From a phage, in assembly GCA_012646185.1 (NCBI GenBank), contig GCA_012646185.1_4706.1: a DNA stretch of 64,000 nt; one strand, 5' to 3'. The notes under the pieces are model-generated. The model had not been told where the DNA came from. It saw only the letters and a program-made list of their open reading frames with translations, and ran no database searches. Below, piece by piece: positions 4,597-48,159 of this stretch; the first letter of the stretch is position 1; each line of letters opens with the position of its first letter. A program made the position numbers and the translations under genes.

Positions 4597-4882
4597 TATG
4601 AAGTCTCCTTAATGTTTCTTGCATGCGTAGTCTCTTCGGCAGAAATAGACGTTTGTATAGATCGATTAACAGATAACGCATAACGGAAGCAACCACCAGG
4701 TATTCGCCTTCGGCTTCCGAGTAGCGTATCATGTTAATCGGATAGTTCAAATAAGAATAAGAAAAGAGATCATCGTTGGTGAGGTGATGATCTTCAAGAT
4801 ACTGACGAAACAATTCTGCTAAGGCATCGTACTCCATTCCGTAGTAACACAACGATACCTGTCTTACCGACAGTCGTTTCAT
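4580..4882 (-). CDS. hypothetical protein
   Basis: 100-aa ORF. Confidence 0.4.
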   Translation of the reverse strand: MKRLSVRQVSLCYYGMEYDALAELFRQYLEDHHLTNDDLFSYSYLNYPINMIRYSEAEGEYLVVASVMRYLLIDLYKRLFLPKRLRMQETLRRLHSERFT

Positions 4883-5721
4883 GCTGGGTTACCTTTTAGT
4901 TTTCCGCGTATCATGTCAACAACGCGTGAGGGATCAGAAATAACATTGGCGATAAGATGATCGATAGGTAGGTCGAGAATGATATTCTTCAGCTGGAAAG
5001 CCGTATCTTTACGACGCACGCCATAGAACACACCATCTTTAAACACAACCTCGTACGAAATGGGGAGCTGGCTAATAACCGTGTTAGCGTAATCACCCAA
5101 CCACATCGACCCCGCCATCAGATGCGCACAAACCGCATGACTAATACGCACATCTTTGTTCTTCCGGCTAACGTCTTTGGTTTTCGACATGGTGACCAGA
5201 AGCTCGCTGATCTTACTCAACATATCGTCGTATACCCCAAAGAACTTAATCAGTTGTCGGGCACCTAACGATATATATGTTTCCCGTGGTAAGACACAAC
5301 ACACCTGCGGTAACGTTCCAACCCCATAAACACAACTGTGTGGCGATAATGGGAGCAAATCAGCAACCGCGTTTTTGATGTTGTTATACTCAACGATATC
5401 ATTGAACGGTGAAAGGCCTTTCGTAATCGGTTTATCAATCGCCACATCGAACTCCGCGAACGTCCATGCTGCTTTACGTGGTTCCGCTTTCTGGTACGGT
5501 GGAGCCAGTACCGCGACAACGCGAAGCCGATGTTCATGGGTATCACGCAGCTTAAGTTGGATACCCTCATCGTCACCCTCACGCACAAGTGAGTAGCGGC
5601 TTGCGCAGTCATCACATACCACCGTTGGTTCGTGTTGACCGTATGCTGCAAGCATCGGTTTACTAAGATCTTTATCACAGTGTTTACAGCGATGATCCTG
5701 TTCCTGATAACTAATTTTCAC
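4879..5721 (-). CDS. hypothetical protein with N-terminal zinc ribbon
   Basis: 280-aa ORF; CKHCD...CDDC. Confidence 0.45.
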   Translation of the reverse strand: MKISYQEQDHRCKHCDKDLSKPMLAAYGQHEPTVVCDDCASRYSLVREGDDEGIQLKLRDTHEHRLRVVAVLAPPYQKAEPRKAAWTFAEFDVAIDKPITKGLSPFNDIVEYNNIKNAVADLLPLSPHSCVYGVGTLPQVCCVLPRETYISLGARQLIKFFGVYDDMLSKISELLVTMSKTKDVSRKNKDVRISHAVCAHLMAGSMWLGDYANTVISQLPISYEVVFKDGVFYGVRRKDTAFQLKNIILDLPIDHLIANVISDPSRVVDMIRGKLKGNPA

Positions 5722-5736
5722 ACCGAGACCCCTTTG

Positions 5737-6693
5737 TTAATGCAAGACACGATCTGCTGGAATTATCGAAGCATTGCTGTCGGACAGATTCGTCGCTTTA
5801 CGATCAGGACTGAATCGACGAGCGTTCTCTTCATGGTAGTTGACAGGGTTATCCTGTTTTAACAGTTCCATTGCCTCATCAAACGTTAGTTCCCGAAATC
5901 CTCTTGGATAGAGGAACAGGGGTTCATCAACATCCAGCCCTTTAACAAACCCGTGCGACAACCAGACACTACCATCAGCACTGTAAAGAACCGGCTCAAC
6001 GTCATAATCCAAGACGTATTGATACCAATAATTAAACAGTTGAGCAATCCACCGATTACGTAATAAGTAATCGATCGTAACCGCACTACGCACGCTGTGG
6101 CACCAGCCGATCTTACCATCAACTTTCTGCAGCAACGTACCCTCATTTGCTTGATGAATAACCGCATTAAATAACCACGCGAGATCGGTTGCGAAAAGTG
6201 CGGCTTCTTGAATATCGCTAATGTAACGCATGGGTATCGTCAGATGCGTGCGGTAATGTGACATTGCCTCTTCGTAGTTGTCTCCTTCGATGCAGAGAGT
6301 CCCGTTTGGCGACAGATGTCCCTGATTCAACGACTGACCAATATAAAGATCAGCGATCGCGTTAATATATTCGACGGTGCCCAAGGTTAACTCAGACATA
6401 AAACAATCGACATCAACAGCCATCGATGTGCTGGAAACAAACGGATTGGTTGGGCGAGTTGTATTAGAGAAAATAATCGACCAAATCGCTTCGTGTTTTT
6501 CATCCGATGGCAAAAACGAAATATGGCGTTCTGCGCTATTATCGACAACAAATACCTTAACGGTTTTCAAACAGCTAGTACAAACATAGCACGTGTTCGG
6601 CAACGGCATATCCGAAAACATATCGTAACGAATCGATGCCAACGAAATGTCATGTCCGCAATGAGGGCATGTCGTATCAATAAGCGTTTTCAT
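5737..6693 (-). CDS. hypothetical protein with N-terminal zinc ribbon
   Basis: 318-aa ORF; CPHCG...CYVCTSC. Confidence 0.45.
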   Translation of the reverse strand: MKTLIDTTCPHCGHDISLASIRYDMFSDMPLPNTCYVCTSCLKTVKVFVVDNSAERHISFLPSDEKHEAIWSIIFSNTTRPTNPFVSSTSMAVDVDCFMSELTLGTVEYINAIADLYIGQSLNQGHLSPNGTLCIEGDNYEEAMSHYRTHLTIPMRYISDIQEAALFATDLAWLFNAVIHQANEGTLLQKVDGKIGWCHSVRSAVTIDYLLRNRWIAQLFNYWYQYVLDYDVEPVLYSADGSVWLSHGFVKGLDVDEPLFLYPRGFRELTFDEAMELLKQDNPVNYHEENARRFSPDRKATNLSDSNASIIPADRVLH

Positions 6694-6956
6694 TATTGAA
6701 TTCCTTTTGATAAGAATAACTGAATATCGGTAAACTGTTCTTCAGGAACATCGTCAGCAGCCGTTAGAACCTTAGAGCCATGTTCATTGAGGTAAGCTTC
6801 CCGTAGACAACGATGACGTCGATTGGCTTCCTGGAACTCAGTGTCCGTCATGTAAACCAGCGTAAACTTCGAACGTTTATTCGGATTGTATCTCTTATTA
6901 CGTTTCTTTGGTTTCTTCGCCATAATAGCCTCGTGAAGGTGGATGGGCACACCCAT
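6693..6956 (-). CDS. small basic protein (start uncertain)
   Basis: 87-aa ORF; lysine/arginine-rich N-terminus MAKKPKKRNKRYNPNKR. Confidence 0.3.
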   Translation of the reverse strand: MGVPIHLHEAIMAKKPKKRNKRYNPNKRSKFTLVYMTDTEFQEANRRHRCLREAYLNEHGSKVLTAADDVPEEQFTDIQLFLSKGIQ

Positions 6957-6986
6957 CCACCTTCCTCCATGTTAAAGTGCGTTCAT

Positions 6987-7493
6987 TTATTCAGGTGTAC
7001 GTACGGTACGCGTGTTGGGATCAACCATTGCTGGCACACCCGCTGGACATTTACGGACATCGATCCGCATCTCCGGCTCGATCGGACGAACGCGATACGT
7101 TTTGCCGTCATCGGTTAACACCGAAATGGTCAACGCTTGGTTCAATTCACTAACGAAGCTCACCAAACGCTGTTGTCCGCCCTTCGACCAGAAGTTAAGA
7201 TCGGTTTCTCCATTGAAATAACTGATTCCATCAGCGGTTCCAATCGTGATTTTAACGATACCTGGATAGTCACGAAGAAGAGGTGCCTGATAACCTTCAT
7301 CTTCCGTATCCAGTTTTACCCACGCGCCTCCCGTAGACAAGCAGTTAACTTCCAAGGCGGTTGGTGCACTGACTTCTGCTGATGACCAGGTATACATCGT
7401 GCCTAGTTTAGCGTGTCCAGTTTCCAGTTCGCTATAATCCCAAGCATGTGCTGAAGCCGCAATAAACAAAGTCGCAAGAAACAACTTTTTCAT
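6987..7493 (-). CDS. secreted/periplasmic protein with Sec-type signal peptide
   Basis: 168-aa ORF; N-terminus MKKLFLATLFIAASAHA followed by W (n-h-c organisation, AHA cleavage motif). Confidence 0.55.
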   Translation of the reverse strand: MKKLFLATLFIAASAHAWDYSELETGHAKLGTMYTWSSAEVSAPTALEVNCLSTGGAWVKLDTEDEGYQAPLLRDYPGIVKITIGTADGISYFNGETDLNFWSKGGQQRLVSFVSELNQALTISVLTDDGKTYRVRPIEPEMRIDVRKCPAGVPAMVDPNTRTVRTPE

Positions 7494-7547
7494 TCTTTCG
7501 ATTCCTATTAAAAGTGACCGATTTCTGTGGTCGAGATTGCTAATAAA

Positions 7548-8009
7548 TTAATTCCGGTTTTGTTTCCGTATTGCACGGTTACGTTTACGTTCTTGGTCTT
7601 TGACTGTACCAAGAAACTTCTTTAATTCTGACGGTTCGAGCGTACCCTCACGTACCACACCGTTTTGTTCGATATGGTACGACCAATAACCAACTTCAGC
7701 CGTTAAGGATAACGTTGTCGGTTGTTCGTCAGGTAACGATCGGGGTGAGAAAATAAAGAGTAATTCAAAAGGCGTTTCTCGGCTGATGGTGGGGCGGATA
7801 CTCACATCAAGTCCCTCCCATCGCTGAGGTTTAAATATTCCTCCGGCGGCGATGATTGTCTCCGAGCGCTGGTCTACAAGCTCAGCTAATTCACGATCAT
7901 CGTTGAAATAAATATCGTGAAGGATATCCGTATCGATAAAAAACCCGCGATCCGAATCGTGACGAACAATGGAATTCTTCATTCTAACGCCTTTATTGTT
8001 TGTTTTCAT
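7548..8009 (-). CDS. hypothetical protein
   Basis: 153-aa ORF. Confidence 0.4.
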   Translation of the reverse strand: MKTNNKGVRMKNSIVRHDSDRGFFIDTDILHDIYFNDDRELAELVDQRSETIIAAGGIFKPQRWEGLDVSIRPTISRETPFELLFIFSPRSLPDEQPTTLSLTAEVGYWSYHIEQNGVVREGTLEPSELKKFLGTVKDQERKRNRAIRKQNRN

Positions 8010-8056
8010 GTCCTATACGAACATGAAAAACCGTTAATTTTTACCGTAGTCGTGTG

Positions 8057-8332
8057 TTAAAAATCCACGCCGCGACCCGTCATCGACGAAGGAACCGCGC
8101 GATAATAGAAGTAGATGTAATGGTCACGATGGCTAAAACAGTTTTTGCAAGCATAGAACTCTCCAGATCCAATGAATGATTTAATACGTGTAACTTGAGG
8201 GTGTCGTGTGAGTAACGCCTGTAGAACGATTTCCATTTGGTGTGCGCTCAAACCAGGTCGAGCTGCAACATGATAATGAAGCTCCTTAAGAAATCGCTTC
8301 CAGGGGTCAGGTTGTGTCGATGATCGAGACAT
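8057..8332 (-). CDS. hypothetical protein
   Basis: 91-aa ORF. Confidence 0.35.
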   Translation of the reverse strand: MSRSSTQPDPWKRFLKELHYHVAARPGLSAHQMEIVLQALLTRHPQVTRIKSFIGSGEFYACKNCFSHRDHYIYFYYRAVPSSMTGRGVDF

Positions 8333-8370
8333 CTTTATCTCCTTAACGGGTGCTGGTAACGCAGCATAAA

Positions 8371-8388
8371 CCCTCCCCGAAGGGAGGG
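8371..8388 (-). terminator. GC-rich stem-loop ccctccc-gaa-gggaggg
   Basis: Perfect 7-bp inverted repeat downstream of gene 8399-8956. Confidence 0.45.
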
Positions 8389-8398
8389 CGGTTAACGT

Positions 8399-8956
8399 TT
8401 ACTCCATCCATACTTCTTCGTCGTAATGATTTTCTATCGCATTACGCCAAAAACGTACGGTGTCCAAACTAATCGGTGCGTAAAAGTGTTGGTCAACGCC
8501 GACGTTAAGTCCGTTGGCCTTCGCTAACATACAGCGATGAATATGACCGAATAAATTAAAGTAGCCTGGGTTTCTTTCGCTGGGCTTATGGCATAGCCAG
8601 TAGGATTCGTCATTGCTAATCGGCAATACCAGCGGGTGCTCATAAACAGCAGCAAACCCCATACCGAGCAGTTTATCACGCCACGCTTCGAAGCTTAATC
8701 CTGTCGCTTTGTATGCGTCTTCGTCCCAATTCCCCATTACCAATTGAACCTGGATATCAGAACGAATGGCTTCCACGAACTCGAACTTACCCCAATCACC
8801 TAAATGCCATAACACACTGTTCTTTGGAAGGTTGTTGATGGCTTTCAGCATATGCTGGTTCATATCGGCGACGCTTGCGAACGGACGGCGTGAATACGTC
8901 CATGTACGCTCGCTATCAAAATGGGTATCCGACATAAAGAAGATGGGTGGGGTCAT
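8399..8956 (-). CDS. calcineurin-like metallophosphoesterase
   Basis: 185-aa ORF; motifs SDTHFD (D-x-H), HLGDW (GD), GNWD (GNHD-like), GHIH (GH-x-H). Confidence 0.7.
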   Translation of the reverse strand: MTPPIFFMSDTHFDSERTWTYSRRPFASVADMNQHMLKAINNLPKNSVLWHLGDWGKFEFVEAIRSDIQVQLVMGNWDEDAYKATGLSFEAWRDKLLGMGFAAVYEHPLVLPISNDESYWLCHKPSERNPGYFNLFGHIHRCMLAKANGLNVGVDQHFYAPISLDTVRFWRNAIENHYDEEVWME

Positions 8957-9435
8957 TGATTTAATTGCTCCAGAAATGCGCGACCCGATTTACTTGCTTT
9001 TAAATGCTGTTCTGCGGAAGTAAGCAGAAGATCGGTTGGCGTATATGCAGCGCTACCTTTCCACGCTGTTTTCAGTTTACCCTTTTCGATACTGAACTGA
9101 ATCAGTTGTTGGGTACCGAAGTTAAGCGTGTTCGTCGCGGCGCTAAATACACCGCCCATCATGCTGTAACCAAAGACTTTCACGTTTTCCGTGTAGAAGT
9201 CGTTATCGATCAATTTGTTCTGGAGCTCGAGTTGGTCGGACGGCAGCAATCCCCCATCAAAGACGCTTAAAATACCAGCCAGGCGATACATGCTCACCTT
9301 TCCTGAAACGCCCACCACGTAGTTGCCGTACAGGGTTTCTTCCAGTTTAGCAACAACGGTGCGATCGTCGGAGGTTTTCATCGAAACCTCAATACCATCA
9401 CCAACTTCTGTTAACGTTAAATCAACGATACTCAT
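8953..9435 (-). CDS. hypothetical protein
   Basis: 160-aa ORF. Confidence 0.45.
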   Translation of the reverse strand: MSIVDLTLTEVGDGIEVSMKTSDDRTVVAKLEETLYGNYVVGVSGKVSMYRLAGILSVFDGGLLPSDQLELQNKLIDNDFYTENVKVFGYSMMGGVFSAATNTLNFGTQQLIQFSIEKGKLKTAWKGSAAYTPTDLLLTSAEQHLKASKSGRAFLEQLNQ

Positions 9436-9456
9436 TCATTATTCTCCGCTTTCATG

Positions 9457-10143
9457 TTAACACATGATTTCACCATGTTTCTTTTCAACATACGTATAAA
9501 CGTCATCCAAATAAGCAATGAGTTTATCACGATCCGCACAGAGCGATTTAATCACCGCAATCTCTTTCATATAAAGCTGCTGACCTAACGCCGGATACGT
9601 AATCCATGCGTAGCCGTCAGGCGCAAATTTAGAAATAAGATAATCAGCGGTTTCCTGTAATGCGAACTCTTTACTCATCTGGCCGTAACGATGTTCGATT
9701 GCACGGATACCAAAACGTTCGTTATCAAGACGACCCATATCCGCCAAACGAAGCACCTGAGAAGCAACCGAGCTACGTGGACCAGAGTACGAGGCACGAT
9801 GTTCAGCAATAAGTACGCGTATCTCCTCGATGTCCTCCGGTGTGAAAATATGCTGCTCGTTACGAAGCAGGATAACCGATGCACGAATACCCCCGATAAG
9901 GTGGTGGTATGTTCTGTTTTCGTGGCAAGCGATATCATGCATAAAAGCAGCGGTTAATAGACGACGACGTTCCGTGGGTCTGATGATCCCAACCACATCA
10001 GCAAGTTCATTTGCCAGTTCAACAACAGCAAGCACATGTTCTTCTTGATGTGCAAGATCGTTCTTCCGAATATTTTCAATTACTTCAGCGCGTGTTTCCT
10101 GAGATAAGAAATTTAAACAATCCAACGAATATAAAGATTTCAT
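9457..10143 (-). CDS. putative HD-domain phosphohydrolase
   Basis: 228-aa ORF; H...HD signature (HQEEHVLAV...AAFMHDIACHE). Confidence 0.5.
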   Translation of the reverse strand: MKSLYSLDCLNFLSQETRAEVIENIRKNDLAHQEEHVLAVVELANELADVVGIIRPTERRRLLTAAFMHDIACHENRTYHHLIGGIRASVILLRNEQHIFTPEDIEEIRVLIAEHRASYSGPRSSVASQVLRLADMGRLDNERFGIRAIEHRYGQMSKEFALQETADYLISKFAPDGYAWITYPALGQQLYMKEIAVIKSLCADRDKLIAYLDDVYTYVEKKHGEIMC

Positions 10144-10184
10144 CGCACGTACCTCTTTGAATCTATTAATAAATTTTCTTTACT

Positions 10185-10208
10185 CACGTAAGTAATATAG
10201 CCGTGAAA
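10185..10208 (-). promoter_or_regulatory. early-promoter-like motif (minus-strand TTTCACGGCTATATTACTTACGTG)
   Basis: Contains TATATTAC; about 45 nt upstream of gene 9457-10143; one of four near-identical copies. Confidence 0.5.
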
Positions 10209-10287
10209 GGATTTGTGTTGGTCCGTCTCGATGCCCATCGTATTTTATGGATTGTCGAATGACGTCATTTTAAGGGACATCCCCGGC

Positions 10288-10316
10288 CTCCTCCCCAGGA
10301 AAGGTGTGGGGAGGAG
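10288..10316 (+). terminator. GC-rich stem-loop followed by T-run
   Basis: ctcctcccca...tggggaggag then ttttt on the plus strand. Confidence 0.35.
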
Positions 10317-10351
10317 TTTTTATCATACATTCTATTAAATCGAGCGCGATT

Positions 10352-40636: not shown

Positions 40637-42790
40637 TTACTCTGCGGTTTCTTGCTTCGGTAAATAACTTGCTGCAATGTCTTGGGCTAACAATGTATTG
40701 TTTTTATTCGAGATGAAAATACCGTAACTTTCCATTAACGCGTAATACGAACGCACGAGCGTAGAGATCAATCGACGAATATCCATACCTTGAATAAAGA
40801 TATCGGGAAGCCCGGAGGCTTCGATCACCGGTAATGGTATCGTTAAGTTGCTTATCGTTTTCTTATCGTTACGTACAATCCAATCACGGAAACGTTGTTG
40901 TAACCCTTTATCCTCCCAGGAATCAATCCAATCGTTAAGAAGCGTTTTGTTCTTCGTCGCCAACGGCACACGAACCCCAACATAGGGTGGTTCCTGGCAA
41001 TGGCCGTACGATTGAGCAAACACCTCTTCCCACATATCGTAAGACTGTTTCGTTACTGCAACATGCGGTTTCACTTTAACACGTGTTAAGAAATCGGGAT
41101 CACCTCGTTTCATGGACTCAACGATTTCGTTTTCTAACGAGATAATATCATCAAGAACCAATCGAATGCTGATCTTCTCATTACGTAACAGCTTATCCAT
41201 GATACCACACATCATGCGTTCAACACGTTTGACGATCATTTTTGGTGCTGACGCATCACGCATAACAGGACCTTTCAATTCCAGCTTCGGTGGATTGATA
41301 GGAACCCCTTCACGCATGGTCATGTAACCGTAATAGTTTTTACCCATCGAGGTTAACGACAGAATCAAGAACATATATTCGTTCTTCATTTCCATTACGT
41401 ACATATGCTCTTTCGCTACACCGATATTACCAGAACACATCGCCATCAGATGAACCGTAATCTGCGTAACCAGATAGATAAGCGTATTTGCTAAGCGCGT
41501 CGAAACTGGATTGATCTCCATATTTCCAAATCGCCACTGAACCCACTCCTGGCAGGTAAACACCGTCGAGTCGGTATCAGACAACACACCCACTTCACGG
41601 ATTGCTGATGGGAAAGCATAAACGCCAGCCGGTTGGTTCTCGGTACGCCAGAACGCCATAATCAAATCAGCATAGCTTTGAATACGCTGTAGCATTAATT
41701 TTGTCGTTGCTGCAGTAAGACGATAACCAAGCTCATTTCCTTTTTCTAGCGCTACGTAAATCGCTTCCCCGTTCAAGAACTCCGTGCATTGTGCTGTAAT
41801 CCAAGCGACCGTGTTGTTATCCATGGAAGCAATAATGGCTTTAGCCTCTTCCATCGTTTCAACCGGTTCGGATGCCAGTTCACATAACGAGTCAAGAAAA
41901 TCTCGAACAAATTCAGGATTAAGCTCACGTAACGAGTACAGGTTATTGCTGTACATGTAGCAGGCACGTTCCAGTGGGGTTAAACCAGTAATTAACTCCC
42001 GGATAATCAGTTCTTTCTCTGGGTCGAAAGTATATCGATGCAAGCATTTCGATACGTTAGCCCAAACCTCTTCCGGTGTAGGGTAATGTAATTTGTATTT
42101 TACCATTACCTGTTCAATGGCTTTACGATCGCTGTTACGGACAATACTTACGATGTTTTCGATTGCGATATCACAATCGTAATAATGGAAATTGCCCGCA
42201 AGGAAGCGTTCGTTGTTCGCATTGGCTGAACCTGAAGCACAGCGACATGTTGTCGTTAAACTTGGATGCGCGATCGGATTATAAAAAGGGTTAAACTTGG
42301 ACGCCTGGGTTCCTGACAAACTGTTGTTATCTAACTTGGTGTTGGTTTGTCGTTTATCGTGTAACTCAGCTTCATCTTTACGTCCGTGTGCTTGTGCTAT
42401 CGACATTTGTTTCTTTTGTTTCTTACGCAACTTACCGTTTTCAACCGCGAAGTCGCTTAGCACACTGGAGCGTGTCTCACGTGGGTAACAGTTAGCCCAC
42501 ACCGGCGTGATAATTAAATTATTTTCTTTAATATCGTTGAAGTATTGGCTGAACTTGATGACTTCTTTTTCTCGATTTCCTTCGGTACGCTGTGTTAATA
42601 CAAGACAGTCGGGATCAACCATCCCGTATTTTCCACCAGGACGAACCGTTTCAAGAACAAACTGCAACGCTTCCTGCTGTGATATCCCACGCATGCGCAT
42701 TAAGAACAGGGTATAATCCTGTACCGCTTCTTTGGTCATATCCAACGTACGACCATATCCGTTTTCATCGTAAAAGAACGGATTTTCCAT
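40637..42790 (-). CDS. hypothetical large protein
   Basis: 717-aa ORF; contains SDTDS but no ordered polymerase motif set. Confidence 0.5.
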   Translation of the reverse strand: MENPFFYDENGYGRTLDMTKEAVQDYTLFLMRMRGISQQEALQFVLETVRPGGKYGMVDPDCLVLTQRTEGNREKEVIKFSQYFNDIKENNLIITPVWANCYPRETRSSVLSDFAVENGKLRKKQKKQMSIAQAHGRKDEAELHDKRQTNTKLDNNSLSGTQASKFNPFYNPIAHPSLTTTCRCASGSANANNERFLAGNFHYYDCDIAIENIVSIVRNSDRKAIEQVMVKYKLHYPTPEEVWANVSKCLHRYTFDPEKELIIRELITGLTPLERACYMYSNNLYSLRELNPEFVRDFLDSLCELASEPVETMEEAKAIIASMDNNTVAWITAQCTEFLNGEAIYVALEKGNELGYRLTAATTKLMLQRIQSYADLIMAFWRTENQPAGVYAFPSAIREVGVLSDTDSTVFTCQEWVQWRFGNMEINPVSTRLANTLIYLVTQITVHLMAMCSGNIGVAKEHMYVMEMKNEYMFLILSLTSMGKNYYGYMTMREGVPINPPKLELKGPVMRDASAPKMIVKRVERMMCGIMDKLLRNEKISIRLVLDDIISLENEIVESMKRGDPDFLTRVKVKPHVAVTKQSYDMWEEVFAQSYGHCQEPPYVGVRVPLATKNKTLLNDWIDSWEDKGLQQRFRDWIVRNDKKTISNLTIPLPVIEASGLPDIFIQGMDIRRLISTLVRSYYALMESYGIFISNKNNTLLAQDIAASYLPKQETAE

Positions 42791-42865: not shown

Positions 42866-42893
42866 AACCGATCCAGCCGAAGCCAGATCGGTT
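42866..42893 (-). terminator. rho-independent-type terminator (minus strand)
   Basis: aaccgatc...gatcggtt 8-bp stem followed on the minus strand by a U-run (plus-strand aaaaaag at 42855-42861). Confidence 0.5.
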
Positions 42894-43088
42894 AAAAAGG
42901 ATAATAACTGACAGAAAGATATCGATGATGTTCGTGAAACAAGATCTTCTCTCGTGTACAATGATGCTAGATCAGAGGGAGGTTGTAACACGAGAGGTGG
43001 TCCGCCAAAGAAGGAATAAAAACACGAACCTATCTTATTTCACTGATGGCACTAACCACTCAAAATATATAGTACTGTATGTAAAAGT

Positions 43089-43502
43089 TTACTGATTAAT
43101 CAAGTCGTTAGCAACAATCTTGGTGTAACCCGCCTGATTAAGAATTTGATTAATTTTCGTCACGTCGGTCGCATCCTCAATAACGATGCTGGGTTTATAG
43201 ATCAGCGTCTTGGTAACGACGATTGTACTCTCCTTAATCCAAGGAATCCCTAGAATCACATACTCGCCGTCGGCTGTAATGACCTCGACGTAATTGTATT
43301 TCGTCGGATCGTTCGGTACACTAGACGGGAGCCGGGAATAAATCTGTTGGTGAATGGCATCTACATCACGACCGTTACGTACAGCTGTGCGATAATTGTA
43401 CACAGCGCTAATTTCTACTCCGTTGAAGTTAACCCCAAGTTCTGGGGCGTACACATCAAAACTCACAACAGAGCCAATCTTTTCTAAATCAGAAGCTGGC
43501 AT
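43089..43502 (-). CDS. hypothetical protein
   Basis: 137-aa ORF. Confidence 0.45.
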   Translation of the reverse strand: MPASDLEKIGSVVSFDVYAPELGVNFNGVEISAVYNYRTAVRNGRDVDAIHQQIYSRLPSSVPNDPTKYNYVEVITADGEYVILGIPWIKESTIVVTKTLIYKPSIVIEDATDVTKINQILNQAGYTKIVANDLINQ

Positions 43503-43513
43503 AATAGCATCCT

Positions 43514-43912
43514 TTATTTAAAAATGTATTCATATCCGAAAGTCGTCGCTGACCAGACCCGGATAGATGATAGTGTTCCGCCACGATAAAACGTTTTTGT
43601 GAATTCCATATCCTGGACAACACGATAATAAACACGTCCGATAATACGCACGATAAGGTTTCGTGATAACGATCTCTCCTCGCAGTATTCATCGATAAAG
43701 TCATCGTCGATATCCGATAAGACAACATCCGCAATTTCTTGCAGTAGATTCCTCATCAGCATCTGCCTTCCTTCGGTACCCCACCCAGACAAACAGTAAT
43801 CGTCTTCTGCCTGACTATAGATGTCGTTAACCGCCTGTTCGAGCAGTTGCTCAAGATAGTAGTCATCGCGTTTTATAACGTGGCGACGGCGCTCAGTGGC
43901 GTATTTTTCCAT
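43514..43912 (-). CDS. hypothetical protein (start uncertain; track ORF extends to 44035)
   Basis: Internal ATG (MEKYATERRR) chosen to limit overlap with 43873-44361. Confidence 0.35.
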   Translation of the reverse strand: MEKYATERRRHVIKRDDYYLEQLLEQAVNDIYSQAEDDYCLSGWGTEGRQMLMRNLLQEIADVVLSDIDDDFIDEYCEERSLSRNLIVRIIGRVYYRVVQDMEFTKTFYRGGTLSSIRVWSATTFGYEYIFK

Positions 43913-44361
43913 CCTGTGTTTCTCTTGTTCGGCGTATGTATTAACGACGCCACAGTCTTTTCTGGATCGTCCCACAATGCACGACGAAAACTGGATACTA
44001 CCATAACGGTAGGATAGATTTGTACAACCTCCCATCCGTAACGATGTGCGTTAGTCGTACGTCCGACATTGAACAGACATAGCTGATTTAAGAAACAGAG
44101 CTGCATCTTCGTAAACAACACCATGTCTTCACGTTTAACGTATCCGAGGATATACGCATTCTCGAACGCCTCGCGTGACAAGACGGGACGATTAAGATAC
44201 CGTAACGCTAATACCAACAACGTTGTTATGCGCAACGGATCTTCTGGGTCATTCATGGTACTCAGCTCTGCTTGTAACCAGTCAGGGATAGTAACCGTCA
44301 GACGATAGGTATCTGTTCCACGATCAACCACATTCAATGTTGAAAAAGGCAACATATCCAT
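43873..44361 (-). CDS. hypothetical protein
   Basis: 162-aa ORF. Confidence 0.4.
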   Translation of the reverse strand: MDMLPFSTLNVVDRGTDTYRLTVTIPDWLQAELSTMNDPEDPLRITTLLVLALRYLNRPVLSREAFENAYILGYVKREDMVLFTKMQLCFLNQLCLFNVGRTTNAHRYGWEVVQIYPTVMVVSSFRRALWDDPEKTVASLIHTPNKRNTGWKNTPLSAVATL

Positions 44362-44899
44362 GAATTCCTTCTAGCTCGAGGTTGTTCTCGCCGGTCTTCG
44401 GTAATAACCCACTGGCCGTTAACATCTGTGTCATCGAGTAGTCAAAGCACGGGAATATCAGGTTAACGGTTTCCTGGATCGCGTCAACATAACTATAAAT
44501 GGCTTCATAATACTCACCGTCATGATCTACGCTAACCAGTTCCTGACACAGTTCTTCGCTTATCATTTCATATACCGGTGGATACCACGATTGAAATGGT
44601 CGCTGCATACGTAACGACCAGTACTCGTACGTTGTATACTGAAGCACGTCATAAGCCGATACGTTAATGCGGTCGAAGAAAGCATACTTGTCCATATGCT
44701 GGTACAACATCGCCAACACGGTTTCCAAGCACACCGATATCCGCACGCCGTCATCTTTCCCGTTAAGAAAATTAGGTTTCTGCCGATAACGCACAAATGC
44801 CGACGGCCTTGATTGCATTATTCCACCACCAACCATAACGTCATACTCGTATCTAACGTAAAATTGAAATGCCACCAATCTTCTACACGTGGAATCCAC
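44324..44899 (-). CDS. hypothetical protein (start uncertain, possibly ATG at 44818)
   Basis: 191-aa ORF. Confidence 0.4.
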   Translation of the reverse strand: MDSTCRRLVAFQFYVRYEYDVMVGGGIMQSRPSAFVRYRQKPNFLNGKDDGVRISVCLETVLAMLYQHMDKYAFFDRINVSAYDVLQYTTYEYWSLRMQRPFQSWYPPVYEMISEELCQELVSVDHDGEYYEAIYSYVDAIQETVNLIFPCFDYSMTQMLTASGLLPKTGENNLELEGIHGYVAFFNIECG

Positions 44900-45501
44900 G
44901 TACGAAGGATTTGGTTAACTTCGCTTCGCATCACCGATAAACGACAACGAAAATCGAACTTCTCATCGTGGCCGTAGTCTTCATGCATGAAAACTTCATC
45001 CAAAACGAACTCAAGTTGCATGTCGACATCGCGGCCAGAGATATTCCGTTTGTACAAATACAGTTCAATCGTGTCGTAAAGCAACGTATGAATATCATAA
45101 TTTCCGTTCGGTGAGAAATAAGGTAATCGCTCATCGAGCATCGAAAACAGATATTCACTGTAGTTTAATAACGGGATGATGTATCGACGCCCTGTCTGTG
45201 GTGTGCGAATATGTATCGAAACCTGACTTGGGCGCGGAATAACCGACGGCTTAGAATCGTCTCTCTGAAATTGCTCTAAAGATCGCAACAAAGGTGGCCG
45301 CATTGTAACTCTCCAACGCCCAATTGTAAGGCCCTTCCAACATGTGTTCCCATACGTGAATAAACTCACTACCGAAGACAGGCTCCAGCGCCATGGTGAG
45401 ATTCGTAAGTTCTGACGCAGCCGCATGGTAAGCATCAACATGTCTTTCCATTGACGGATCGTCTTCATTGAAAATACGTTCTGTGTCGCCAGCCCGCTCA
45501 A
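44818..45501 (-). CDS. hypothetical protein (N-terminal third likely non-coding)
   Basis: 227-aa ORF; R/W-rich N-terminus, plausible start at MLDERLPYF. Confidence 0.35.
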   Translation of the reverse strand: MSGLATQNVFSMKTIRQWKDMLMLTMRLRQNLRISPWRWSLSSVVSLFTYGNTCWKGLTIGRWRVTMRPPLLRSLEQFQRDDSKPSVIPRPSQVSIHIRTPQTGRRYIIPLLNYSEYLFSMLDERLPYFSPNGNYDIHTLLYDTIELYLYKRNISGRDVDMQLEFVLDEVFMHEDYGHDEKFDFRCRLSVMRSEVNQILRTWIPRVEDWWHFNFTLDTSMTLWLVVE

Positions 45502-45712
45502 TAAGTTCGGTAATGAGATCTGTCCATGTCTCGTGACACGTCATCATTTCCTGTTCTCGACTTAGTATGCCGATGTCTGCGTGGACGCTGGACTCGAACC
45601 GGTCTAAAAGGACCCGAAGAACGTGCACCTTGTCGATGTATTTCACCGTTATCCAGGAAAGCGGTTGCCACCGACTCAGCATCCATCCGGTACTCGGGAA
45701 CCCCAAACTCAT
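45251..45712 (-). CDS. hypothetical protein, possibly the frameshifted continuation of 45498-46475
   Basis: Track ORF 45251-45880 overlaps the upstream ORF by 383 nt in another frame. Confidence 0.3.
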   Translation of the reverse strand: MSLGFPSTGWMLSRWQPLSWITVKYIDKVHVLRVLLDRFESSVHADIGILSREQEMMTCHETWTDLITELIERAGDTERIFNEDDPSMERHVDAYHAAASELTNLTMALEPVFGSEFIHVWEHMLEGPYNWALESYNAATFVAIFRAISERRF

Positions 45713-46475
45713 ATAGTACGGGTTGCACCGGACCGAAGACGGAGCGACGTTGTTTAAATCGTTCCTTAAGGGCAAGGCCTTGTTTAATATAAACGGGTTC
45801 ATTGGCGAGCTGTTCCGCTTTTCGTTTTGCGTGAGCCAATCGAAGTTCTTCCAATTGCCCAAGCCATTCAAATTGTTCATCTGTTAGCTCCTGGGGACGT
45901 TCAACAATCGCGCCAGACGGGCAGATATTGATCGTAATGTTAATTGACGGCATCGCCATCACTCGAGGATTACTATTACGTACGCGGACAACATGTTCGG
46001 TTGCTGATTTACGATCGACGCAATACTCTGTTTCTTGGAACTCAAATGCTTTTAACGGCGTTGGTTTTGTTTGATGTTTAGGAACGCGGCCAAGATCAAC
46101 AATATAGGCATAATCGCACACACGTTCTATTCCGTAAATACGGTTATCCGACCAGTTCTTACCAAACAGCTTGTTGTGATGATAAGACAGATATTCGGTT
46201 ACCATACCCTGGACAACATCGAAGTCTTCTCGAAATTCAGGTTGGTACCAAATCGGACCGAGAATATCTGCGAACGATTCATGACGATATCGAGGATCAT
46301 GTCGAGTCCAGGTCATTCTCTGATTAAGATCGAAATCCACCAACAACTCGGTTAATTGCAATTTTTCCTTCGGAGAAAGCTGGCGTTGATGATGCAAACT
46401 CAGACAATCGATAAGCGGTAATGAAACCCACGATGCTAATGTGTACAAATCGATCCTGGCTAATCTCTTGGTCAT
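45498..46475 (-). CDS. hypothetical protein (C-terminal tail Arg-rich, probably out of frame)
   Basis: 325-aa ORF. Confidence 0.4.
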   Translation of the reverse strand: MTKRLARIDLYTLASWVSLPLIDCLSLHHQRQLSPKEKLQLTELLVDFDLNQRMTWTRHDPRYRHESFADILGPIWYQPEFREDFDVVQGMVTEYLSYHHNKLFGKNWSDNRIYGIERVCDYAYIVDLGRVPKHQTKPTPLKAFEFQETEYCVDRKSATEHVVRVRNSNPRVMAMPSINITINICPSGAIVERPQELTDEQFEWLGQLEELRLAHAKRKAEQLANEPVYIKQGLALKERFKQRRSVFGPVQPVLYEFGVPEYRMDAESVATAFLDNGEIHRQGARSSGPFRPVRVQRPRRHRHTKSRTGNDDVSRDMDRSHYRTY

Positions 46476-46566
46476 ACTCTTTTCCTAAGTCCCCATTGTT
46501 TATACACACGATATCTGGGAATAGTTAAAATATACGGCGTAAAACGAAGCAGGAGAGTTTCTGACG

Positions 46567-46887
46567 TCATTTTCTCCCTCTTCGAATACTACCGATACCT
46601 CTTTCGTCTAAGACGTCCCAGGCACGCTTTATTTCATCCTCCGTTGCTCTGGTATCTGGAGGGACAACCATAACACAGTCATGGAATGGCCAATGTGTAG
46701 GTCTGGGGTTAGCGAACAAATCATCCCATTCAAATGTCCATTCTTTCTTTGAGCGATTGTAGTAGAGCGTAAGGTACGTGTTGGTATACGCTGGATAACC
46801 ATGCATCACTTCAATATCCTTACGATCTTGCCGTTCCTGATTCCAATCGTTAAACCGCTTTCTTATTTTCTCCCACCACTTTCCCAT
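46567..46887 (-). CDS. hypothetical protein
   Basis: 106-aa ORF. Confidence 0.45.
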   Translation of the reverse strand: MGKWWEKIRKRFNDWNQERQDRKDIEVMHGYPAYTNTYLTLYYNRSKKEWTFEWDDLFANPRPTHWPFHDCVMVVPPDTRATEDEIKRAWDVLDERGIGSIRRGRK

Positions 46888-46940
46888 GCTTTCTCCTACA
46901 CGGCATAAAAGCCTGCCCCGAAGGACAGGCTCGATAGAAC

Positions 46941-47141
46941 TTAACGACCATCCAATTTCAATGAAGGATGGTTGACGATATGTGCGTGTTTTGCTGGGTC
47001 ATATAGCTGATATGGAAAATAGCCATGCCATTGACGGCCTTGGCATTTCGTACACAGGAACTGACCAACACCTTGTCGATTCTCGTAAGCGAGTTCGGTA
47101 CTATCAACATGACCGCAACGTTCGCAGATAAACAGCGACAT
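46941..47141 (-). CDS. small zinc-ribbon protein
   Basis: 66-aa ORF; CERCG...CTKCQ. Confidence 0.45.
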   Translation of the reverse strand: MSLFICERCGHVDSTELAYENRQGVGQFLCTKCQGRQWHGYFPYQLYDPAKHAHIVNHPSLKLDGR

Positions 47142-47178
47142 AGCGCATCCCCATTCACTTGAACCTTTTGGTTCGGCA

Positions 47179-48159
47179 TTAGAAAAGCAAGAAACCGCTA
47201 TTCTTCGCTTCCGCTACAGTTTCGTCACCAACTTTCGGTGCCTGTTGACGTGCGTTACGATGTTCGATGTAACGTTTCGCTTCGTCAGCGATTTGTTTGA
47301 TAATACCCCCTAAACGATCGGTACTTAAAACAAACGACGTCGCTTCACGAATCGGGCTGCTTTCAGGCACAAAACCATCACAGCTGTAAATAGCGCTAAC
47401 ACCCATGACTTTTGTCGCGTCTTTCGGATAAAGCGTACAGAAAGCAATCGGGCTATCGTTCTCTTTCGTCCAATCGTATCCCATGAACGTATTCAGTTCG
47501 GTGATCGTTGGTTCCAAACCGGTAACACGTGGATGGTTTAAGAAGTTTTCCAGGTCGGCGCTGTCAAGACGACGGTTCTCGCCAGAAAACAGAACACAAA
47601 GCTGGCTAATAACAACCTGCACGTCCAGGTTGACATCCTGCTCCGATTTCCCATTTTCGCCATTCATGTGATAGCTAACAATCACTGGACGTTTCAACCC
47701 TTCTGCAGCCGCCATCAGTCCCTTGAAGGTGCGATCGGCGTTGATCGTCTGGCGCTCATCATCGAACGAGGCAACGATACAACACACCACACGTTCACCG
47801 CGTTCCAGCAGGTTAGCAACCAACGCAGGACCGGCAACAGAACCTGAACCACCGCTCAAACTAAAGACCACGATATTAAATTTACCGGGCGTACGCTTAT
47901 TCAGAATACCCGGGATTTGTGAACAGATCAGTTCAGCGTTCTCATCACGCTTCTTACCAGAACCGTCTAACTCACGACCGGCTGCATCTTTAAAGATGTA
48001 AATATGATCGTCACCCAGTGTGCTATCGCGTAGGTTAGCGCGGCTGGTATCGACATACGTCATGCTGTGTAATCCTTTCGCGACTTCGCCTTCAAATGCT
48101 GAGCCGATTTCGCCACCACAACCACCGACAGCCCAAATATGTACTTGGTTCTCTTGCAT
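47179..48159 (-). CDS. phuZ: tubulin/FtsZ-like GTPase PhuZ
   Basis: 326-aa ORF; N-terminal AVGGCGGEIG (T1 loop) and SLSGGSGSVAGP (tubulin signature GGGTGSG-like). Confidence 0.8.
   Translation of the reverse strand: MQENQVHIWAVGGCGGEIGSAFEGEVAKGLHSMTYVDTSRANLRDSTLGDDHIYIFKDAAGRELDGSGKKRDENAELICSQIPGILNKRTPGKFNIVVFSLSGGSGSVAGPALVANLLERGERVVCCIVASFDDERQTINADRTFKGLMAAAEGLKRPVIVSYHMNGENGKSEQDVNLDVQVVISQLCVLFSGENRRLDSADLENFLNHPRVTGLEPTITELNTFMGYDWTKENDSPIAFCTLYPKDATKVMGVSAIYSCDGFVPESSPIREATSFVLSTDRLGGIIKQIADEAKRYIEHRNARQQAPKVGDETVAEAKNSGFLLF

Follow-up and report, generated by a model that had tools for sequence, protein, structure and literature searches.

Same-strand overprinted genes that are translated from an internal start in the +1 frame are well known in phages, and include Rz/Rz1 of lambda, A/B/K and D/E of phiX174 and the lysis gene of MS2. 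Overprinting has been reviewed (PMC8227390, PMC6195259), and so have +1 frameshifting of the prfB (RF2) type and the 'translational correction' of indels (PMC5009743). Here, we have analyzed a cluster of overlapping open reading frames (ORFs) on the minus strand of a phage, at positions 43,514 to 46,475 of a stretch of 64,000 nucleotides (nt) that is called the window throughout (NCBI GenBank assembly GCA_012646185.1, contig GCA_012646185.1_4706.1). Two of these ORFs, A and B, overlap by 383 nt. The type of arrangement is itself nothing new in phages; our comparison identifies A/B as a real, conserved and long same-strand overlap, in which B is most likely initiated internally at ATG 45880.

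The region 43000-47200 of the window could be aligned without gaps to Escherichia phage vB_EcoM_Goslar (98.5% identity), and we assign the window to a Goslar-like nucleus-forming jumbo phage (genus Goslarvirus). The ORF cluster corresponds to Goslar gp237-gp242 in RefSeq (Goslar_00198-00193 in GenBank), which lie on the minus strand and are all annotated as 'hypothetical protein'. A and B are the same genes as gp237 and gp238 (NC_048170: YP_009820882.1 and YP_009820881.1; MK327938: Goslar_00198 and Goslar_00197), and the A protein of the window is 99.4% identical to that of Goslar. The features in and around the overlap are as follows (SD, Shine-Dalgarno; aa, amino acids).

45498-46475, minus strand: gene A, homolog of Goslar gp237/Goslar_00198; 325 aa, start ATG 46475 with AGGA at 46486-46483; annotated in Goslar
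45251-45880, minus strand: gene B, 209 aa, read +1 relative to A; proposed here as an extended version of Goslar gp238
45888-45892, minus strand: SD sequence AGGAG, 7 nt upstream of ATG 45880, with a B-frame stop TAA at 45886-45884
45540-45727, minus strand: hand-off zone with all three codon positions constrained (A residues 250-312, B residues 52-114)
45542-45547, minus strand: annotated start of Goslar gp238 (ATG ATG), giving 98 aa; not conserved, SD -3.0/-4.3
45498-45650, minus strand: C-terminal tail of A, rich in Arg and encoded in the -1 frame of the conserved N-terminal helix of B; of lineage-variable length

Like the overprinted phage genes mentioned above, B appears as a second ORF in the +1 frame, with an SD and an ATG of its own that lie within the gene upstream, and the A/B locus is divided into sub-regions in each of which one frame dominates selection, the overprinted parts being compositionally odd and probably disordered. 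As with Rz/Rz1, which may be embedded, overlapped or separated, the extent of the A/B overlap differs between relatives. Unlike embedded overprinted genes, B crosses out of A and has its conserved core downstream, its translation from an internal start being proposed on the basis of the sequence. Unlike spanins and lysis proteins, B showed no sequence or domain relation to such proteins, and no lipobox or transmembrane segment was evident on inspection.

To compare the locus among relatives, we used seven genomes that form the Goslar group, namely the window, Goslar, the IMG/VR genomes L004 (98.3% nucleotide identity) and L005 (95.8%), and the Logan assemblies L009, L010 and L011 (87%). More distant syntenic loci were found in L012 and L013 (~30% protein identity) and in L022, an 81%-identical sister of L012. 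P0005, P0007 and P0008 are homologs of protein A; P0009 lies on an 870-nt contig that ends before the A/B junction. When IMG/VR and JGI metagenomes were scanned with a profile of the A alignment, the only additions were near-identical genomes, a profile search of a set of 5.8 billion proteins gave no further A lineage, and megablast and tblastn searches of 50,697 phage records matched A and B in Goslar only. A maximal ORF was defined as running from the first ATG, GTG or TTG after a stop onward, and the strength of an SD was taken as the SD:anti-SD duplex energy in kcal/mol (5th and 1st percentiles of the background, -6.4 and -9.5; most genes of the phage, -5.5 or better).

Relative to A, B is read in the +1 frame in the window, where (46475-45880) mod 3 = 1, and likewise in L012, L013 and L022. 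All seven Goslar-group genomes have an A of 325 aa and a B ORF of 209 aa, their alignment over 43021-46593 contains not a single indel, and from 45670 down the B frame of the window is 100% identical to that of Goslar. Positions 1, 2 and 3 of the A codons are positions 3, 1 and 2 of the B codons, and the fraction of variable sites in the seven genomes at A positions 1/2/3 changes along the locus as follows.

46475-45881 (A only):.14/.08/.39
45880-45728 (overlap, first part):.14/.04/.37
45727-45540 (overlap, second part):.11/.02/.06
45539-45498 (last 14 codons of A):.36/.00/.07
45497-45371 (B only):.70/.10/.00

The locus evolves purely as A down to 45728, the B frame is constrained from 45727, and evolution is purely that of B from 45539 on. 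Within the hand-off zone (45727-45540), the variability of A third positions falls sixfold, from.39 to.06 (p=1e-7), and that of B third positions is.11, compared with.70 in B-only sequence (p=9e-10); the low variability of the B third positions in this zone would fit dual coding. Codon usage in frame A is negative from ~45615, and that in frame B, which is near neutral through the overlap, is positive from ~45570 and clearly so from ~45525. An earlier note on this DNA, made from the letters alone (hereafter the original prediction), had described frame A as turning junk-like just where frame B becomes protein-like. Both codon usage and substitution phase bear out this description. The junction is indeed unusual, and the functional frame switches from A to B around 45730-45620, far ahead of the start given in the Goslar annotation.

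Comparison of more distant lineages placed the beginning of B further upstream. B-frame residues lying upstream of every called start are conserved across lineages, with synonymous differences in the nucleotides (Goslar, STGWMLSRWQPLSWITVKYIDKVHVLRVLLDRF; L012, RTAMVIRSFQAISWMTMKYVKPVNIIRLLLDRF; L013, QTGILLNQWQPLCWVTVSYVNKLMVLRF). Over 18 codon columns (16-33), BLOSUM62 sums were 46/72/40 for frame B versus 19/19/19 for frame A, and 16 codons further upstream this relation was reversed. On the basis of such conservation, the selected coding region of B therefore begins at least 144-180 nt upstream of the annotated ATG. This differs from the Goslar annotation, in which gp238 has 98 aa and overlaps A by 50 nt, whereas the most likely start, ATG 45880, gives 209 aa and an overlap of 383 nt. 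The annotated start is itself lost in relatives: ATG ATG at 45547-45542 reads ACA CTG in L009, L010 and L011, where B is under strong purifying selection just downstream, and the Met aligned to it is a Glu in L022/P0012.

The long B ORF opens in the same way in all lineages: its first ATG follows a stop at a distance of one codon, and this ATG carries the strongest SD among the B-frame candidates.

Window, first B ATG at 45880: AGGAG, -6.6 kcal/mol, the best of 12 B-frame start candidates
L012, first B ATG at 6686: GGAGG, -9.5 kcal/mol
L013, first B ATG at 6046 (a different position): GGAGG, -9.3 kcal/mol
L022, first B ATG at 113: GAGGA, -5.9 kcal/mol

The SDs of the called B starts are -3.0, +0.3 and -3.1. 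Over the SD and ATG of B, 13 consecutive third positions of A (45912-45876) are invariant. The B frame is open in all 10 genomes; counted back from the codon that corresponds to GTG 45646, it remains open for 78, 77 and 59 codons in the three lineages. The window contains 319 ORFs that begin within a long ORF on the same strand but in another frame. Only five of these have at least 100 codons; B is one of them and has the best SD of the five. Just one of the other four also has a good SD at its first ATG (-6.4); it was found at 5265-5612 on the minus strand, wholly inside the ORF 4879-5721.

The most telling evidence on the leader came from comparing L012 with L022. Over B leader residues 18-41, the differences between these two are seven synonymous and two conservative in frame B, compared with one synonymous and seven non-synonymous in frame A (p ~0.004); past leader residue 41, A regains control for the next 20 codons, and then B takes over for good. 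In the L012/L022 lineage only, translation of the B frame and selection on it therefore appear to extend far upstream of the hand-off. Such alternation of frames is what two translated frames would produce, and it would be ruled out if B were read only past a shift site or from a nearby start. It should be noted that where the end of a contig truncates A, gene callers pick the long B (P0011, 209 aa; P0012, 215 aa), and that otherwise, in the assemblies examined, B was either absent from their calls or shortened to a start that is not conserved. Callers of the Prodigal type allow same-strand overlaps of no more than ~60 nt, which would explain why B is missed or shortened. Peptide sequences of the B leader include NFDWLTQNEK, CNPYYMSLGFPSTGWMLSR and NSSPMNPFILNK, and B-frame peptides upstream of the annotated gp238 start include WQPLSWITVK and FESSVHADIGILSR.

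We consider it somewhat probable that A and B are distinct genes, each translated on its own, that B is read from ATG 45880 inside A to give 209 rather than 98 aa, and that 383 nt are common to both in two frames. A to G form a conserved co-directional module of small orphan genes between PhuZ tubulin and DNA polymerase in Goslar-like phages, which may be read from a single transcript. Ribosomes that initiate at ATG 46475 would make A (325 aa), whose last 45-60 residues would be translated as a basic low-complexity tail with a sequence largely set by the codons of B. Other ribosomes would initiate inside A, at ATG 45880 behind the AGGAG SD, and would read the +1 frame to make B (209 aa). The leader of B (~51-63 aa) is variable and probably disordered, and would be written over the conserved C-terminal region of A; the conserved and predicted helical core comes after it. 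Two genes written across one stretch would make selection cross from A to B near 45727, which is the change that had been noticed in the original prediction.

Several points weigh against this proposal. The products of gp237-gp242 were not found in the examined part of one Goslar virion proteome, and a literature search found no ribosome profiling of Goslar, no translation data from infected cells and no mention of these genes. The Goslar-group leader of B (45880-45728) has no constraint of its own: its 56 codons contain 20 amino-acid changes, and A third positions vary there as much as elsewhere; therefore, the upstream start in the window lineage rests on the SD, the open frame and the analogy with L012/L022. 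Since the SD and the ATG arise from the conserved P-x-E-(x)-L-T-D-E motif of A (Goslar, L012), they are not fully independent observations. The joint probability of the open frame, naively ~3e-5, becomes a modest ~0.005 given the A sequence and codon usage (0.046, ~0.45 and ~0.25 for the three lineages). A test of stop avoidance in the Goslar group (8 of 128 A-synonymous mutations would give a B-frame stop; 16 events observed, P=0.36) was without power. The B-only sequence at 45370-45304 is as invariant as 45727-45540, which makes the assignment of dual coding to the latter uncertain. Finally, the AlphaFold models of B and A are of low confidence (pLDDT 39 and 44, respectively).

Some other explanations have to be considered. 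An assembly or sequencing indel, or a single gene that was recently pseudogenised, had been suggested by the original prediction, and at a raw look one frame does decay where the next begins. However, the Goslar isolate, both IMG/VR genomes and the three Logan assemblies, which come from different samples, all have the same frame structure, the +1 relation recurs in L012, L013 and L022, including lineages with ~30% protein identity, and the seven Goslar-group genomes are free of indels over 43021-46593. Strong purifying selection acts on both parts of the locus, and the variable fractions at B positions 1/2/3 in B-only sequence (.10/.00/.70) do not resemble those of a pseudogene. Our comparison thus refutes both the indel and the pseudogene, to which we give next to no probability, and the comparison with orthologs proposed at that time returned the same two separate, overlapping genes in the relatives. 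A different alternative, possible but unlikely in our judgement, keeps two genes and starts B near the hand-off (GTG 45646, GTG 45628, ATG 45682 or ATG 45712), so that A and B would overlap by ~130-215 nt and the open frame upstream would be due to chance. It would agree with the onset of cross-lineage B-frame conservation at ~45691, with the within-group invariance from 45728, just upstream of ATG 45712, and with the unconstrained leader of the Goslar group; moreover, a canonical start is found in each lineage no more than three codons away from the equivalent of 45646 (Goslar, GTG; L012, ATG; L013, GTG). These candidates nevertheless have weak SDs of -3.0 to -3.3 (-4.1 for the best in L013), compared with -5.5 or better in most genes of the phage, and none keeps its position across lineages, ATG 45682 being ACG in L005. 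B-frame conservation with synonymous changes also reaches upstream of 45646, and a start near the hand-off would leave unexplained both the strong SD at the first ATG of every lineage and the selection on leader residues 18-41 in L012/L022. It seems quite improbable that the annotation is right, that is, that gp238 starts at ATG 45547/45544 with 98 aa and a 50-nt overlap, and that the B-frame signal upstream is a by-product. The loss of this start in the L009 group (ACA CTG) and in L022 (Glu) is at odds with the strong purifying selection downstream of it in both, of the five sites that vary in 45656-45548, four are third positions of B (p ~0.01 under A-only coding), and cross-lineage conservation of the B frame, with synonymous differences, continues upstream of ATG 45547. 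What speaks for the annotated start is that the GenBank and RefSeq annotations of Goslar agree, that the called B of L012 begins at the aligned Met, that AGGA lies 4 nt before ATG 45544 and that B codon usage is clearly positive only from ~45525.

Programmed frameshifting had also been raised in the original prediction, together with a search for slippery heptamers. As in -1 frameshifting of the phage tail-chaperone G/GT or dnaX type, two ORFs overlap on one strand. Unlike in those systems, the downstream frame is +1, frame A lacks an X XXY YYZ heptamer over 45900-45500, no downstream structure was found and A and B are not tail genes; the wrong direction and the missing heptamer make a -1 mechanism impossible. 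Very improbable, though open to argument, is a programmed +1 frameshift or other recoding in the variable linker (~45725-45690), which would yield an A-B fusion of ~408 aa and leave the 325-aa product as the unshifted form. Like prfB-type +1 frameshifting, A/B has its downstream frame at +1 in all lineages, a sharp hand-off of conservation from A to B and a short zero-frame tail of variable length. An 11-codon linker is conserved in neither frame between lineages and is nearly invariant within them, no conserved and well-placed start codon lies near the hand-off, and rare codons (CTA, ATA, CGA, AGA) and a CCC-G site are nearby; the frame A sequence just before the putative junction is ...PVLYEFGVPE. 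On the other hand, and unlike prfB, the junction has neither a CUU-UGA-like site nor a zero-frame stop, no SD lies 3 nt upstream of a shift codon conserved across lineages, and selection in one lineage already acts on the B frame ahead of the putative shift. No shift-prone site is common to the three lineages over codon columns 4-17 (CAA CCC GTA / CGC TCC GAG / GCT CCC GTC; TAC CGG / CAC CGC / AAC CGG). Nor could stimulatory RNA structure be observed: the fold of 45560-45760 has z=-0.24, and the four-lineage consensus fold is -11 kcal/mol with a covariation term of -0.4. A +1 shift would also leave unexplained why the B frame is already open, behind a strong SD and an ATG, 59-78 codons upstream, and why the leader is under selection far upstream of the hand-off in the L012 lineage. 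In an equally improbable variant, Goslar-like phages would have a conserved recoding site at which ribosomes or the phage RNA polymerase shift +1 within the linker (~45725-45690) without a canonical motif, with the internal SD and ATG serving as a parallel route to B.

If A and B are separate genes as proposed, the Arg-rich tail of A would be a consequence of the coding of B. Past the LDNGE-equivalent motif, the tail has 45-47 aa in the Goslar group, 26 in L012, 34 in L022 and 2 in L013. Its codon-usage score is negative, and between L012 and L022 it evolves freely while B is conserved. A likeness of the Goslar and L012 tails (RPVRxQR) had been considered as a sign of selection on the tail; it is best explained as a by-product of the conserved LLDRF codons of B. 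Peptide sequences of the tail include GARSSGPFRPVR and TGNDDVSR.

Structure prediction was of limited use for both proteins. The single-sequence AlphaFold model of B (pLDDT 38.8), which is too poor for fold assignment, is unstructured over residues 1-74 and helical thereafter. The model of A (pLDDT 44.4), likewise of low confidence and too poor to assign a fold, suggests an alpha/beta N-terminal domain, two long helices round a conserved TDEQFEW motif and, from about residue 275 onward, a tail without structure. A Foldseek search against viral models gave weak matches (E 1e-3 to 0.1) to the moderately confident N-terminal domain of A (residues 1-150) only. The targets were uncharacterised jumbo-phage proteins of 120-190 aa from Klebsiella phage Eowyn, PhiPA3 (gp039 and gp044), 201phi2-1 and Psa21; further targets came from Erwinia phages Derbicus, Desertfox and RisingSun. 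The N-terminal domain of A may have a small-protein fold that is common to the jumbo-phage family.

The remaining genes of the module and its borders are as follows.

44818-45303, minus strand: gene C (gp239), 161 aa; 53 nt common with B; homologs in L012 and L013
44324-44836, minus strand: gene D (gp240), start ATG 44836 or ATG 44818; overlap with C of 19 nt or 1 nt
44324-44899, minus strand: maximal ORF of D in the ORF listing
43873-44355, minus strand: gene E (gp241), 160 aa; 32 nt common with D; supported by the Goslar annotation and homologs
43514-43912, minus strand: gene F (gp242), 132 aa; 40 nt common with E; annotated in Goslar
43089-43502, minus strand: gene G (gp243), SH3DP domain protein (Pfam PF20287, 1.3e-36); final gene of the co-directional module
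42866-42893, minus strand: intrinsic-terminator-like hairpin, a 12-bp stem followed by a T run; module end, annotated as a terminator in Goslar

The coordinates and overlap lengths in the original prediction were exact for maximal ORFs (A, 45498-46475; B, 45251-45880; C, 44818-45501; E, 43873-44361; F, 43514-44035). Among the three long overlaps that it listed, that of A and B (383 nt) is real, whereas those of C with B (251 nt) and of E with F (163 nt) are artefacts of extending the ORFs to their maximum. Within 45304-45497, each of the 30+ variable sites leaves the B protein unchanged and alters that of C, and the extension of C (45304-45501) is interrupted by stops (a TAG at site 45386 in Goslar, and a stop at site 45391 in L009); we regard this extension as non-coding. 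C begins at ATG 45303, which has GGAG 7 nt upstream (SD -6.4 kcal/mol), and therefore its real overlap with B is 53 nt. Similarly, the extension of F (43913-44035), which we also regard as non-coding, contains stops in the L009 group at sites 43969 and 43930, and its substitutions are synonymous in E down to 43897. With F beginning at ATG 43912, the real E/F overlap is therefore 40 nt. An apparent hyperconservation of 43749-43980 disappeared once the genomes with 87% identity were included. E begins at ATG 44355, because ATG 44361 is ACG in L009 and ATG 44355 is kept. The annotated start of Goslar gp240, ATG 44818 (TAATG with the stop of C), is ATA in L005, GTG in L009 and GTA in L010 and L011; the in-frame ATG 44836, six codons upstream, is kept and has a weak SD, and gene calls in the Logan assemblies give D 170 aa.

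Overlaps in the module of the window measure 19-53 nt, and called overlaps are 19-41 nt in L012 and L013, where homologs of C, D, E and F could be recognised. Moderately long overlaps thus appear as a conserved habit of the module. In the C homolog of L012 (7194-7377), the frame is open for 61 codons upstream of the called ATG, and EVSVHLRRPQSGRQY, which lies upstream of that ATG, aligns to residues 27-41 of the window C. The real start of the L012 C gene probably overlaps B by at least 80 nt, which would be a further under-called overlap in the module. Another observation concerns 45251-45370, in which only 2 of 120 nt vary in the seven genomes, whereas the adjoining B-only sequence has 70% variable third positions. 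Only 45303-45251 of this segment overlaps C, and its RNA folds worse than shuffled controls (z=+1.6); the RNA might be kept open for the initiation of C.

The module is flanked by PhuZ tubulin (47179-48159) on one side, and by the SH3DP protein (43089-43502) and the divergent DNA polymerase (40637-42790) on the other. Searches of Pfam, PHROGs and PDB sequences with A to F found no relatives, and by these comparisons A to F occur in the Goslar-like clade only. In L021, a contig of a more distant chimallivirus whose PhuZ is 32% identical, ~4 kb separate PhuZ from the SH3DP protein (region 4992-10337), with about nine small ORFs in between. In a PhuZ-anchored scan, these ORFs showed no recognisable relation to A to F, which indicates that the position of the module has been conserved and its content turned over. 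Next to the module, the gp236 homolog (window 46567-46887) has a 189-nt deletion (46643-46831) and a 1-nt deletion (~46595) in L005 (IMGVR_UViG_3300011560_000001), where it appears to be dispensable or decaying.

For Goslar, a widely used model phage, our results imply a correction of the gene model: gp238 would probably have 209 rather than 98 aa, with its ribosome-binding site inside gp237. This would affect the deletion, the knock-down (by dCas13 or start-site antisense oligomers) and the tagging of gp237 and gp238, and proteomic searches would be unable to find leader peptides that are missing from the database. B may also illustrate a systematic blind spot of gene callers. Finally, A/B would provide a clean and conserved case of two proteins, each with a disordered arm encoded across the ordered region of the other.

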